IMG/VR virus record: IMGVR_UViG_3300032087_000761
Location: 1-30,107 of that record
Reading direction: 5' to 3' (one strand)
Origin: a virus
Taxonomy: Duplodnaviria > Caudoviricetes
Length of the DNA stretch: 30,107 nt
Position numbers and translations under genes: made by a program. The notes below the pieces were generated by a model that was not told the DNA's origin, did not search any database, and was given only the letters and a program-made list of their open reading frames with translations. How positions within the stretch are numbered: the stretch's first letter is position 1; every line of letters begins with the position of its first letter. Shown piece by piece: positions 17,078 to 24,385 of the stretch.

Positions 17078-18298
17078 ATGATGCGCAATCTAGCAAAAGC
17101 GTTCACGCCACATGAAGCAGAACAAGTAATAGAAAAAATAACGCTCACAGAAAAACAAAAAGAAGCCGCAGAGATGTGCTGGATACAAGGGCATTCTTTG
17201 CACAAAGCGGCAGAGATGCTTCATGTAACTCGCGGTACGATTAAAGAACGATTGCAGATGGTCGTAAAGAAAAGCGCACTGCAAGGCTTCTCACCACGCC
17301 ACGATCAAGTAAACCCCGTACCTGAAGGCCAGGTAATCAGGGGCGAGTCAATTTTATACGACGCTGATAATAAGCCCATCATGACGTGGGTTAAGACGCG
17401 CGCAGACACCGAAAAGCAACTGGAGGTTATGCGTGAAATCGTAAAGGGCATGGCCGACGAGATAGAGCCGGCCCAGCCCGTCAAAGCACCAAAAGTTAAC
17501 GCAGCCAACCTATGCAACTGCTTTGTTATTACTGATTACCACATGGGTATGTTAGCTGATAAAGATGAGGTTAACGCCTCTGGTCAGACGCAAAACGATG
17601 ACTGGGATTTAAAGATAGCGGAAAGGACGTTGGTTAAATGGTTTGCAGAAGCTATCAGAATAAGCCCAGAGGCCGATACAGCGGTATATGCACAGTTAGG
17701 CGACTTTCAGCATTTTGATTTAGAGCCGTTAACGCCAGCGTCTAAGCATTTACTTGATGCTGACTCACGGGCCTTCAAAGTAGTAAGAGCAACGATCCGT
17801 GTCACCCGGCAAGTTATTAAGATGCTTCTCGAAAAACACAAAGAGGTCCACGTTAAGTGGTGTGACGCTAATCATGACCCATACTCTGCTATCTGGATGC
17901 GTGAGTTACTGACGGCTTTGTATGAAAATGAGCCGCGCGTTTACATCGACAACTCAGCAGACACTTACTACTGTTATGAGTTTGGCAAGACGGCTTTATT
18001 CTTCCATCACGGCCACAAGCGTAAAGTCGCTAACGTGGACACCGTGTTTGCCGCAAAGTATCGAGAGGTGTTTGGTAGGACAGAACACGCCTACGCTCAC
18101 ATGGGACACTATCACTCCATTGACAAGAAAGAGACAAATCTTATGGTCGTGGAGCAACATAGAACACTTGCAAGTGCTGATGCTTACTCAAGCCGGGGCG
18201 GCTGGCTTAGCGGACGCGAAGCAAATGTCATCACTTATCACAAAGACTACGGTCAGGTAGCGTATAATACGATCTCATACAAAATGATTAATAAGTGA
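17078..18298 (+). CDS. HTH plus calcineurin-like metallophosphoesterase
   Basis: N-terminal sigma-region-4-like HTH (LTEKQKEAA...SLHKAAEMLHVTRGTIKERL); motifs DYH, GDFQHFD, ANHD, HHGH, GHYH. Confidence 0.8.
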   Translation: MMRNLAKAFTPHEAEQVIEKITLTEKQKEAAEMCWIQGHSLHKAAEMLHVTRGTIKERLQMVVKKSALQGFSPRHDQVNPVPEGQVIRGESILYDADNKPIMTWVKTRADTEKQLEVMREIVKGMADEIEPAQPVKAPKVNAANLCNCFVITDYHMGMLADKDEVNASGQTQNDDWDLKIAERTLVKWFAEAIRISPEADTAVYAQLGDFQHFDLEPLTPASKHLLDADSRAFKVVRATIRVTRQVIKMLLEKHKEVHVKWCDANHDPYSAIWMRELLTALYENEPRVYIDNSADTYYCYEFGKTALFFHHGHKRKVANVDTVFAAKYREVFGRTEHAYAHMGHYHSIDKKETNLMVVEQHRTLASADAYSSRGGWLSGREANVITYHKDYGQVAYNTISYKMINK

Positions 18299-19459: not shown

Positions 19460-19753
19460 ATGTCATTAAAGCTTGCTATCTACGGGTCTCTCGCTGCTGT
19501 GATATTGATCGCTTTTCTTGTACAAGAATTTATAGAGTGGCGGAGAAACGAAATGATTGCGAAAGACACACTACAGGCTGGCGCGCTGATTTTTATCATA
19601 CTATTGGCGCTGGGCTTTGTTGGTAACCTAGACTACGAAGACGCTGTGATAGAGGAACGTCATTATTGCGCAAGCGTCAAGCTGTTCAACGATAGTAACG
19701 GCGAGCGCGGGCATCCTAACTTCAAAGAACTCGACTGCAATGAAAGTCCTTGA
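19460..19753 (+). CDS. Membrane protein with two hydrophobic helices
   Basis: RBS AAGGGGGT; two TM segments; GFVGNLDYED and a Cys pair; second in-frame RBS and ATG at 19553. Confidence 0.65.
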   Translation: MSLKLAIYGSLAAVILIAFLVQEFIEWRRNEMIAKDTLQAGALIFIILLALGFVGNLDYEDAVIEERHYCASVKLFNDSNGERGHPNFKELDCNESP

Positions 19754-20504
19754 CCTATTTGCTGGTATTGGTGGATTCACTTTAGGGTTAGAGCGCGCAG
19801 GGTTTGAGACTGCGGCGTTTTGTGAAATAGACCCTTATGCACAAAAGGTATTGCGCAAGAACTGGCCTGGAGTACCAATATATGACGACGTTCGAGACAT
19901 CACAGCAGAGCGACTTGTTTCCGATGGAATTAGAGTCGATGTCATCACAGGCGGATTTCCCTGCCAAGACATCTCAGTCGCAGGAAACCAAGCAGGAATA
20001 CACGACGGAACGCGCAGTGGTTTATGGTCAGAGTGCGCCCGTCTTATTGGGGAGCTTCGACCCCAATACGCCATCTTTGAAAACGTCACAAACCTGCTTA
20101 ATGGAGAACGGGGAGCTTGGTTTAAGCGAGTACTCTGGGACATTTCCGCGCTCGGGTATGATGCGGAGTGGCACTGTATACCAGCTAGTTACCTTGGTGC
20201 CTCACATAGAAGGGACAGAGTATGGATCATTGCTTACCCCATCGGCACAAGGGTGGAAGGCTTGGACATTCAGAAATCCATACGCACTTATCCGCAAAAA
20301 TCATGCAGATGGCAATTTGCAAGAGCAATTAATGAGGCTTTACCAGCGGATGATTACACCAGAATTCGAGGAGCAGTTGATGGGGTTCCCGAAATCATGG
20401 ACAGACTTAAATGCTTAGGTAATGCTGTAGTACCACCAATACCAGAATTGTTAGGGGGCGCAATTTATGAAGATTACAAAAAAAGAACTATCGGAGGCCG
20501 TTAA
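19740..20504 (+). CDS. DNA cytosine-C5 methyltransferase, alpha (large) subunit
   Basis: Motif I DLFAGIGG, IV GGFPCQD, VI ENV, VIII HRRDRVWI, X LGNAVVP; no recognisable motif IX or TRD in this frame. Confidence 0.92.
   Translation: MKVLDLFAGIGGFTLGLERAGFETAAFCEIDPYAQKVLRKNWPGVPIYDDVRDITAERLVSDGIRVDVITGGFPCQDISVAGNQAGIHDGTRSGLWSECARLIGELRPQYAIFENVTNLLNGERGAWFKRVLWDISALGYDAEWHCIPASYLGASHRRDRVWIIAYPIGTRVEGLDIQKSIRTYPQKSCRWQFARAINEALPADDYTRIRGAVDGVPEIMDRLKCLGNAVVPPIPELLGGAIYEDYKKRTIGGR
19882..20418 (+). CDS. Nested +1-frame methyltransferase beta subunit (M.EcoHK31I-beta-like), 178 aa
   Basis: Own RBS GGAGT (19869-19873) and ATG 19882; C-terminal ITPEFEEQLMGFPKSWT is a C5-MTase motif IX. Confidence 0.8.
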   Translation: MTTFETSQQSDLFPMELESMSSQADFPAKTSQSQETKQEYTTERAVVYGQSAPVLLGSFDPNTPSLKTSQTCLMENGELGLSEYSGTFPRSGMMRSGTVYQLVTLVPHIEGTEYGSLLTPSAQGWKAWTFRNPYALIRKNHADGNLQEQLMRLYQRMITPEFEEQLMGFPKSWTDLNA

Positions 20505-20661
20505 ATTACGTGATAAAGGCGTAGATATATGGAGTCTTGCGAAGATTTATAACGTTCATTATGACACCATGCGCAAGTACCTACGCCATTACGACCTGTA
20601 TGGTGTGTCAATATTTAGCTCATCACCACAATATATTGATCAAGCCACCAATAACCCCTAA
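20467..20661 (+). CDS. Small HTH protein
   Basis: LRDKGVDIWSLAKIYNVHYDTMRKYL HTH pattern; RBS AGGGG. Confidence 0.65.
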   Translation: MKITKKELSEAVKLRDKGVDIWSLAKIYNVHYDTMRKYLRHYDLYGVSIFSSSPQYIDQATNNP

Positions 20662-22498: not shown

Positions 22499-24385
22499 AT
22501 GGCTTTACTGTCTGCAATCACAAAGGCCGTTGATGAACTAGTGCAGCTTGGCTACCCGCGTGAGGTGGCAGAGCGCATTGTTTCTGGCGACTTGCCGATG
22601 GACACGGCCTCTCGTATGCAGCGTGCTGAGGCCATGGGCTTCGACCCTTCCGATGTGCAATATCACGGCACCAAAGCATACTTCACAGAATTTGCACCTA
22701 GCGAATTTGGAAATGTTGGCCCCGGCATTTATATGAGTACAAATCCTGAAGTGGCGTCAGGATATGCAAGTCGTAATTTGTACAATCCAGAAGAGGGTGC
22801 GCAGGTCATGCCGCTTATAACGCGCGGCGAGACAATCGGAATGCGTGATTACTTTGCACAGTATCCCGATACCGCCATTTCGCAGATGCCTGACACAAAT
22901 GCAGAGCTGAGAGAGCGAGGTATAACTGCAATCAATGAAGCCGCAGGAGCGCCTGACAAAGCCGTTTTTGACCCGAGAGATATCCGCTCACTGTTTAGTG
23001 CTGCATTCGACCCTGAATACAAAGGCTCCAATATTCTTGGCGGAGCTGCTACGGCAGCAGTAGGCGCTGGACTATTAGCAACACCAGAAGAGGCAGAGGC
23101 TGGCGTAGTAAAGACATTTGGCCGGGCGTTCGATCCTCGCTTCGATCCTCGTGTGAAAGAGCAGGAAAAGCTACGAGACACTACGTTTACGATAGAAGAA
23201 CGTGGCACGCAGGACGCACCTCGTATACCGCTGGCTGACTTAGAAGGCCGTCCGTTCGTAACGACTATGTCAGATCGCACACAGGCTGGCGGATTGCTGA
23301 CTGGCATTGACGATGTAGCTCTTGATAGACCGATCAACCTACAAGGCGGTCAGGGCTTCATGTTTGAGAATCCCGGCATGGTGTGGGCGTCAGCTCCGGG
23401 CGTTGTTAATCAAATCATGCGTGCGGCGTCTGAAGTGGGCGATAACCCTGTTTACCTGCCTTTCCGTATGGCTCCTACAGGCGGTGACTTTGCCACTATG
23501 ACCGGCGAAACCATGCTTAGTTTTGCGTCTAGCAATATGAATAAGACGCAGAAAAAAGCGCTCGATCAGGCTATTAAAGACTACGAAAGCGTTGGGTCAA
23601 TGGTCAAAGGCAAGCGTGTAGGCGCTGGGCTGAAGATTAAAGACTGGAAAGGCGTCGATGATCCTAGCTCCGTGGAGGTATGGCGCAACACGCCAGATAC
23701 CTTGCGCAAAGAGCTGATGAACATGATGGACGTGCAATTCCGTGATAAAGGCGGCCTCAGTGTTGGACAAGCGCGCCTAGCAGTCACTGAGCCGGGTCAG
23801 GCAGATGCACTCGATGCGCAGATACAGAACATCGGTGAGATATTCACGGGCAAGGATGTTGTGCAGGCTAGTGGGCATCCCTCGTATCCAGCAGGCGTCC
23901 CCGGTCAAGGGTTAGGGCGTACTGATCAAGAAGTAGGCATTTTCGAGCTGTTAACTGACGCACGTTTCGGTGGTCAGCAAAAGCCTGTTGGCGATCCACA
24001 AAAACCAACTGCGCAAGAAATACGTGCATTGCAGATGAAGCCTTATACAGGCCGCATCACGGAAGATATATTGCGTGGCTTAGAGACTCGAGGTGTCAAT
24101 GTCAACGCCAATCCGATGGTTACAGCGGCAGCCGTAGCGGCAGGGCAAGAGGCAGAAGGCTTGCTTGCACAACTACCGCAAAAAGACTTGGAGGCGTATA
24201 ACTACAGCGATGTACTGCCGGTCAAGCGCTCTAAAGACCCAGAAGAACGTGAGGGGCTGCTAGGCGGCTACAGCCCGGCATACACCGGAATCGTTGAAGA
24301 TATGGTAGAAGGATTGCTTAAGTTCAGCACGCAAGCAAAGCGTGGAATTTACAACCCTACAGCAGCAACTGAATTCTTACTGTAA
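22499..24385 (+). CDS. Polyvalent-type protein with ADP-ribosyltransferase-like (ART-PolyVal) N-terminal domain, probably virion-delivered
   Basis: QYHGT...FTEF...GPGIYMSTNPEVASGYA...VMPL...AVFDPRDIRS matches the ART-PolyVal pattern; hydrophobic linker ending PEEAEAG; second domain not recognised. Confidence 0.65.
   Translation: MALLSAITKAVDELVQLGYPREVAERIVSGDLPMDTASRMQRAEAMGFDPSDVQYHGTKAYFTEFAPSEFGNVGPGIYMSTNPEVASGYASRNLYNPEEGAQVMPLITRGETIGMRDYFAQYPDTAISQMPDTNAELRERGITAINEAAGAPDKAVFDPRDIRSLFSAAFDPEYKGSNILGGAATAAVGAGLLATPEEAEAGVVKTFGRAFDPRFDPRVKEQEKLRDTTFTIEERGTQDAPRIPLADLEGRPFVTTMSDRTQAGGLLTGIDDVALDRPINLQGGQGFMFENPGMVWASAPGVVNQIMRAASEVGDNPVYLPFRMAPTGGDFATMTGETMLSFASSNMNKTQKKALDQAIKDYESVGSMVKGKRVGAGLKIKDWKGVDDPSSVEVWRNTPDTLRKELMNMMDVQFRDKGGLSVGQARLAVTEPGQADALDAQIQNIGEIFTGKDVVQASGHPSYPAGVPGQGLGRTDQEVGIFELLTDARFGGQQKPVGDPQKPTAQEIRALQMKPYTGRITEDILRGLETRGVNVNANPMVTAAAVAAGQEAEGLLAQLPQKDLEAYNYSDVLPVKRSKDPEEREGLLGGYSPAYTGIVEDMVEGLLKFSTQAKRGIYNPTAATEFLL

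Follow-up and report, generated by a model that had tools for sequence, protein, structure and literature searches.

Background

The window analysed here, an entire virus record of 30,107 bases, contains a C5 methyltransferase gene whose 254-aa reading frame shows motifs I–VIII together with X and lacks motif IX. According to published descriptions, the large domain of a C5 enzyme holds motifs I–VIII as well as X, and the small domain, which makes base-specific contacts, holds the variable region and motif IX (PMC3404938, PMC2790894). The variable recognition region lies between motifs VIII and IX (PMC3404938, PMC2790894). Is the missing part of the window's enzyme encoded elsewhere? Or is the long open reading frame that lies within the gene, in the +1 frame, an accident?

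Two-chain exceptions among the C5 enzymes, EcoHK31I and AquI, are described in the literature (PMC2836561, PMC3404938). M.EcoHK31I is a two-chain C5 methyltransferase of E. coli with the target YGGCCR (PMC2836561, PMC3404938). The reports state that EcoHK31I alpha is inactive when the beta starts are removed, that beta in trans restores full protection (PMC2836561), and that the recognition domain was placed in alpha (PMC2836561, PMC3404938). Here we investigate the two frames of the window's gene, alpha and beta, and their relatives in viral and cellular genomes.

Results and discussion

Layout of the locus

The first-pass annotation of this DNA had described an alpha frame of 254 aa lacking motif IX, with a second ORF nested inside it in the +1 frame, and this layout is confirmed (Table 1). 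The C5 hallmarks in alpha, including the catalytic Pro-Cys, ENV and RxR, belong to motifs I–VIII, which occupy residues 1–167 and are followed by a linker of about 50 residues and then by motif X. The linker is overprinted on the module and motif IX of beta. The Pfam DNA_methylase match to alpha is limited to residues 1–177, and motif X aligns with low score to residues 292–318 of M.HhaI. Motifs IX and X of a C5 methyltransferase are thus both present at the locus, IX in beta and X in alpha. In the AlphaFold model of alpha the pLDDT is mostly above 90 over residues 1–170 (four blocks are at 74–86), about 90 over residues 231–250 and 47–73 in the linker, which is modelled as partly helical at a pLDDT of 52–73. 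Alpha models confidently as a large domain with a low-confidence linker.

Table 1. Features of the nested methyltransferase gene and the gene that follows it
Feature	Position in window	Strand	Remarks
Alpha chain, 254 aa	19740..20504	+	C5-methyltransferase motifs I–VIII, linker, motif X
Shine-Dalgarno-like GGAG	19869..19872	+	9 nt ahead of beta start ATG 19882
Beta chain, 178 aa, +1 frame, nested wholly in alpha	19882..20418	+	phrog_1008, E=1e-17
Catalytic Pro-Cys-Gln of motif IV, alpha	19959..19967	+	Without variation among the 61 alpha chains aligned
Conserved T(W/F)PRSG-x4-G segment of beta	20137..20184	+	Lies over alpha motif VIII; alpha four-fold divergence 0.28, against 0.61 outside the overlap
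Single module of beta (LLTP...MITP, residues 117–160)	20230..20361	+	Likely target-recognition domain
Motif IX, beta frame	20353..20403	+	Aligns with EcoHK31I-type beta motif IX, E=7e-7 pairwise; alpha four-fold divergence 0.11
Motif X, alpha frame (LGNAVV...)	20415..20468	+	Begins where beta stops
Downstream 64-aa HTH-like gene	20467..20661	+	Weak HTH matches below cut-off; context, outside the enzyme

From alpha codon 31 the +1 frame stays open as far as 20418, and it offers two ORFs, one of 193 aa from the ATG at 19837 and one of 178 aa from the ATG at 19882. No Shine-Dalgarno-like match lies upstream of the ATG at 19837. The shorter ORF does have the ribosome-binding site of its own and the terminal motif IX that were claimed for it. 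Among the relatives, a Shine-Dalgarno-like site precedes a start at alpha codons 44–70 in 33 of 74 genes, compared with 31 of 474 internal +1 ATG or GTG codons, and in several of them a stop stands immediately ahead of such a beta start. The doubly coding stretch, put earlier at about 540 nt, measures 537 nt. Beta ends in ITPEFEEQLMGFPKSWTDLNA, and the LGNAVV of alpha follows 12 codons later.

Public sequencing runs cover the locus in part. Contigs from three runs of unrecorded library type cover the gene piecewise with no net frameshift, and no piece spans the whole stretch. One public run covers the module with 0 differences. Two have a coverage gap over it with loose ends at the borders, which fits module exchange and is no proof of it. 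Coverage of the locus in one RNA run is limited to 19666–19815.

Both reading frames are conserved and selected

The viral set comprised the best 80 loci of 597 IMG/VR matches. Motif IX is in the +1 frame in 77 of these 80 loci and in alpha in none; the other three are cut before motif IX. Of those 77 loci, 76 have a +1 frame that opens no later than alpha codon 69. Stops were counted in 75 genes, which are the viral 80 without 4 truncated loci and 2 duplicates and with the window's gene added. Interruption of the +1 frame in close homologues would speak against a nested gene; the frame is kept, with 1 stop seen against 382 expected from synonymous recoding. One relative, L025, has a stop in beta. 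A +1 run of 150 codons occurs in 74 of the 75 genes, compared with 8 of 139 neighbouring ORFs, and none of 20,000 synonymous recodings of the window's alpha keeps the +1 frame open (mean 8.5 stops). Stops are abundant in the +1 frame before codon 60 and after codon 217, and in the +2 frame throughout.

Suppression of synonymous variation in the overlap, suggested earlier as a check, was measured across 37 disjoint pairs. The four-fold divergence of alpha is 0.61 (0.56–0.67) over codons 1–46, 0.48 over codons 67–110, 0.28 (0.23–0.33) over codons 111–166, 0.11 over motif IX and 0.54 past the end of beta. The silent sites of alpha are therefore suppressed over the overlap only. Because changes at these four-fold sites alter beta residues, it is the sequence of beta, beyond its mere openness, that is selected. 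Both frames are coding and selected, and the motifs of the enzyme are divided between them.

A second set was drawn from genome assemblies of bacteria and archaea and again took the best 80 loci. A single open +1 gene runs through motif IX in 70 of these. Motif IX lies in alpha in 2 others, and in the remaining 8 beta is only partial, being truncated in some and broken in others. Since loci in both sets were chosen by likeness to the query, these fractions describe this nested family and not the C5 enzymes overall. One of these 8 (L156, 3001–3693) has an alpha with motifs I–VIII and X, but its +1 frame is closed, and both the module and motif IX are missing; it is a relic or else a chain relying on a borrowed beta. 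In L114–L117, members of the L090–L122 subfamily described below, the alpha frame is interrupted upstream and beta is still open.

Beta carries a conserved T(W/F)PRSG-x4-G segment. Across 53 betas its residues S91, G92 and G97 hardly vary or do not vary at all. Four single-chain relatives (L128–L131) have a homologous segment as a normal C-terminal tail in frame, which makes the segment a real protein element. It probably docks beta on alpha. In those four relatives the last 120 residues, past motif X, are homologous to the middle of EcoHK31I-type beta, and the +1 frame is closed. The beta profile has no match among solved structures. The structure model of beta is poor (pLDDT 59, pTM 0.32); its comparison with viral models gave only matches with TM-scores below 0.3, and look-alikes of beta in the Atlas are clusters without names.

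Exchangeable units in the beta chain

After the T(W/F)PRSG segment, the betas carry units that start with W/L-P-T-P. A census found 315 units in 205 genes, with a median length of 41 aa and 1–5 units per gene (6 genes scored 0). At 60% identity they form 171 clusters, in a set that is enriched for the window's unit, which was itself a search query. Among 369 pairs of cores that are at least 80% identical, 190 share no module cluster, and the core nearest to the window's (L001, 95%) carries two different units. Conversely, the window's unit is found on cores down to 37% identity, and it is scattered across several branches of a quick tree of 66 cores, which was used only for this scatter. A subfamily (L090–L122) with motif IX EILMMWPEGW and motif X TGNGWV also carries the window's module.

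Which frame do the units serve? Of 41 DNAs of the window's unit that were examined, 33 are distinct. Over these 33, amino-acid identity is 0.60 in the alpha frame and 0.88 in the beta frame, and beta third positions account for 65% of the differences. Gains and losses of units leave both frames open. Between motifs VIII and X, beta is the selected frame and alpha is a tolerant linker.

Three loci from the Rickettsiaceae (L162, L166 and L222) have motif IX moved into alpha, with the units still in the +1 frame. Over the units of L222, L166 and the truncated L163, +1 is better conserved than alpha in every interval compared; L166 has a stop within its last unit. Because these units stay selected in the +1 frame after motif IX has left it, beta must be kept for more than motif IX. 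In this Rickettsiaceae/Candidatus Megaera variant (L162:3001–4215, L166:3001–4029, L222:2498–3523) the +1 gene is shorter. L162 and L166 were considered as single-chain monomers and rejected, as their modules remain in the +1 frame. No single-chain form with modules in frame was found among 17 longer hits or 148 top profile hits.

We infer that the modules are target-recognition domains. The first-pass annotation had called the segment starting with LLTP TRD-like, and this is upheld indirectly, by selection in the beta frame and by exchange between cores. Against recognition regions from SPbeta MtbP and from nine further enzymes, a profile of 141 modules scored no higher than shuffles. Its best stretch in MtbP, L133 and L134 is PTLT, with scores in the shuffled range, and PTPTA resembles the TL motif by eye only. 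L133 and L134, with L135, L136 and L140, are of another nested type, in which the +1 frame over motifs IV–VIII has only the arm and a CSLSDILE...KY segment and then a stop, and motif IX and the recognition segments are apparently in alpha or in the following gene.

Comparison with known enzymes

M.EcoHK31I had been named as the precedent for this gene. One published EcoHK31I primer matches an E. coli gene in 81 of 5,426 genomes; a primer search of plasmids gave no match. The representative used here (L082) has an alpha of 309 aa, a +1 beta of 176 aa and a convergent restriction enzyme alongside, and the ends of its beta fit the published primers, with one residue differing from one primer. It is homologous to both chains of the window in the same frame relation. 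The alphas are 46% identical over 166 aa, and the beta profile matches the EcoHK31I-type beta with E=2e-7 in a small set. As in M.EcoHK31I, alpha has motifs I–VIII and X, beta is fully nested in the +1 frame and carries motif IX, and motif IX lies 12–14 codons ahead of motif X. The counterpart of the T(W/F)PRSG segment in EcoHK31I is a WSNSG segment, and the beta truncations that weaken association start near it, according to the primer table in PMC2836561.

The two systems also differ. Beta starts at alpha codon 48 in the window and at codon 104 in the EcoHK31I-type gene, and the EcoHK31I clade is a separate supported branch of the quick tree. The window's gene is a phage orphan, whereas L082 adjoins its restriction enzyme. 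M.EcoHK31I has the YGGCCR target and a cognate restriction enzyme; for the window's gene no restriction enzyme is among the neighbouring proteins scanned, and GGCC counts give no signal. The precedent holds for a nested +1 beta with motif IX and does not extend to the recognition segment. In EcoHK31I this segment lies in alpha, and motif IX is the only conserved motif of beta; in the window's gene it is the beta frame in which the middle is under selection, in the form of modules that can be exchanged.

M.AquI (CYCGRG) is likewise made of two chains, and its small chain has part of the variable region and motif IX (PMC3404938). That small chain has motif X too, in a simple cut into N- and C-terminal parts (PMC3404938), whereas here one gene is nested in the other and alpha keeps motif X. 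The multispecific enzymes of the Bacillus phages SPR, H2 and phi3T are phage orphans of the C5 class too, and their variable region contains units in tandem (PMC8936443). The nested family has 1–5 tandem exchangeable units between motifs VIII and IX, and the window's gene has one. In the Bacillus phage enzymes, however, the recognition domains and motif IX are in frame in one chain, and several targets have been demonstrated, according to the published account (PMC8936443). The modules have no significant sequence match to MtbP of the Bacillus phage SPbeta. Hidden out-of-frame coding and within-gene recombination are shared with actinophage methylases that have HNH insertions (PMC11855218, PMC9957025). 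Unlike the nested beta, that insertion is described as a selfish nuclease (PMC11855218, PMC9957025). The searchable portion of PMC11855218 gives 0 hits for subunit, EcoHK31I and target recognition, and the main text of PMC8788219 does not mention methyltransferases.

A probable two-chain enzyme and its alternatives

It is probable that the gene encodes a two-chain enzyme in which the nested beta supplies motif IX and, likely, a recognition cassette. By analogy with EcoHK31I, alpha and beta are likely to assemble into one enzyme. Beta would be translated from its own start, would use motif IX and the T(W/F)PRSG segment for docking, and would act as the small, DNA-reading domain in the form of a separate chain. 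One unit would specify one target, and several modules several targets. The arrangement could plausibly have originated when two compensating frameshifts came to flank the variable region and were rescued by a +1 start.

The most serious alternative follows the published EcoHK31I model. Beta could be a structural partner that supplies motif IX only, with specificity in alpha or relaxed and with the modules serving another role such as binding of a partner protein. The placement of the EcoHK31I recognition domain in alpha, as given in the published accounts (PMC2836561, PMC3404938), fits this model, as do the failure of the module profile to detect a canonical recognition domain and the partly helical model of the alpha linker. 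In three genes of the EcoHK31I clade, selection on the segment around YTLDSRG does act in the alpha frame (0.97 there, 0.58 in the other frame). Over the window's module the reverse is seen and alpha drifts, and modules persist in beta after motif IX has left. We regard this alternative as unlikely.

Far less probable is a beta that is real but separate, with alpha acting alone or with another partner. The intact-looking alpha without beta in L156 would suit such an arrangement. Against it, what alpha is missing, namely motif IX and a conserved variable region, is just what beta contains, and in the correct order; EcoHK31I alpha by itself is reported to be inactive (PMC2836561).

A single polypeptide made by programmed frameshifting, from alpha to +1 and back, is marginally less probable still. 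The first-pass annotation had allowed for such a fusion product, the segments are collinear with a normal single-chain enzyme, and two database proteins (P0005 and P0210) join alpha motifs I–III to beta. Two shifts would be required, however. An X_XXY_YYZ heptamer lies between motifs IX and X in 0 of 73 genes, and a run of 6 lies near motif VIII in 1 of 75. The beta stop wanders from 4 codons before the motif X glycine to at least 21 after it, and the +1 frame is open and selected some 100 codons upstream of any needed shift. P0005 and P0210 both lack the catalytic Pro-Cys and look like frameshifted copies, and the joined form is 1 of 148 top hits. The fusion is thus not borne out.

A chance open frame, a sequencing error or a decaying, doubly frameshifted pseudogene can be dismissed: the +1 shadow of a conserved protein is partly conserved itself, and some neighbouring ORFs have a long +1 run, but the stop-codon and silent-site tests refute these explanations, independent contigs agree and the catalytic residues are invariant.

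Target and restriction pressure

The two-chain enzyme may have an anti-restriction role. Orphan status, claimed from the start, is corroborated by PADLOC, which found no restriction enzyme among 16 neighbouring proteins; its defence-family matches were alpha itself and weak matches to NinG. Of the 64 six-base palindromes 17 are absent from the window, and GGWCC is avoided (3 sites). Palindrome loss is a sign of restriction pressure and is common to all 21 genomes examined. The absence of 17 palindromes and of a restriction enzyme nearby counts in favour of an anti-restriction setting. The avoidance is equally strong in phages with other modules, and it shows restriction pressure and not the role of this enzyme.

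What might the enzyme's target be? Counting GGCC sites gave no encouragement to the GGCC-type specificity put forward earlier, as GGCC is mildly low with or without the window's unit and is not relieved. TCGA and CCGG are over-represented in the window. In a post hoc screen of 776 words none passes Bonferroni correction, and CCGG has the largest effect among the top words. CCGG stands at 0.92–1.27 of expectation in all 11 genomes with the window's unit and is below 1 in 9 of 10 genomes with other units, including three close relatives (0.82, 0.67 and 0.21). The pattern agrees in a comparison of 29 with 68 unused loci (p=3.5e-5), and GCGC agrees more weakly. CCGG is a weak post hoc lead and rather unlikely to be the target, because 7 of the 11 genomes fall in a single clade and the window continues to avoid ACCGGT and CCCGGG.

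More broadly, a very large phage family may carry its specificity on an overprinted subunit built of cassettes that recombine in and out with both frames still open. Such a subunit would reprogram alpha by exchange, by stacking or by another beta acting in trans, and the window's cassette would read a CCGG-like site. Such a reading is possible, and taken as a whole we lean slightly against it.

Annotation and extent of the family

Gene callers appear usually to pick one frame, which may be either one. The first-pass annotation expected that they would miss beta. This holds for mycobacteriophage Che9d, where alpha alone is annotated, and fails for the window's own contig, where beta is a called protein matching phrog_1008; the contigs that yield identical copies of alpha are no longer than 21,970 bases. 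In Che9d (L081:523–1882) two tandem near-duplicate amino-methyltransferase-like genes lie just upstream of the nested C5 gene.

Beta matches 63 GenBank phage records, including phages of Mycobacterium, Vibrio, Synechococcus, Bacteroides and Porphyromonas. Clusters matched by the beta profile, at 50% identity, number 35,228 with a cut-off of E<=0.001 and 5,604 with one of E<=1e-30, counts that are inflated by module diversity. Full-text searches, covering few subscription papers and neither REBASE nor the original EcoHK31I papers, turned up no description of a phage family whose second chain is nested and modular. Treated in the literature cited here as a rare exception, the layout is widespread among phages and prophages from many phyla, where annotation records half of the enzyme. 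Predictions of specificity and cloning based on the annotated frame would therefore fail, and codon optimisation of alpha would erase beta. Reciprocal overprinting can also be studied in this family as a large natural data set: where one frame has its functional part, the other is tolerant. If the modules are recognition domains, the family would provide natural specificity cassettes by the hundred, on an enzyme that is already split in nature.

Setting of the gene

The window has genes for an SU10-type capsid and portal, a terminase, a lysozyme and NinG, and the nearest cultured capsid is that of an Octadecabacter phage (74%). The methyltransferase gene sits amid small genes, with NinG on one side and the terminase on the other. 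The HTH-like gene that follows it is in the +1 frame as well and overlaps the final 38 nt of alpha. Promoter and terminator signals in the window did not exceed those in shuffles, and a tRNA search of it found none.

Three other genes of the window have unusual features. A long ORF that is open at the contig start (3–2060) has FDP-x-x-L-Q-x-x-I repeats of about 20 residues and no credible family match. Directly past the terminase, a 628-aa protein (22499–24385) has an ART-PolyVal (ADP-ribosyltransferase-like) domain at residues 54–106. A 406-aa protein (17078–18298) has an N-terminal HTH like that of sigma-70 region 4, followed by motifs that, by eye, we take to be metallophosphoesterase-like.
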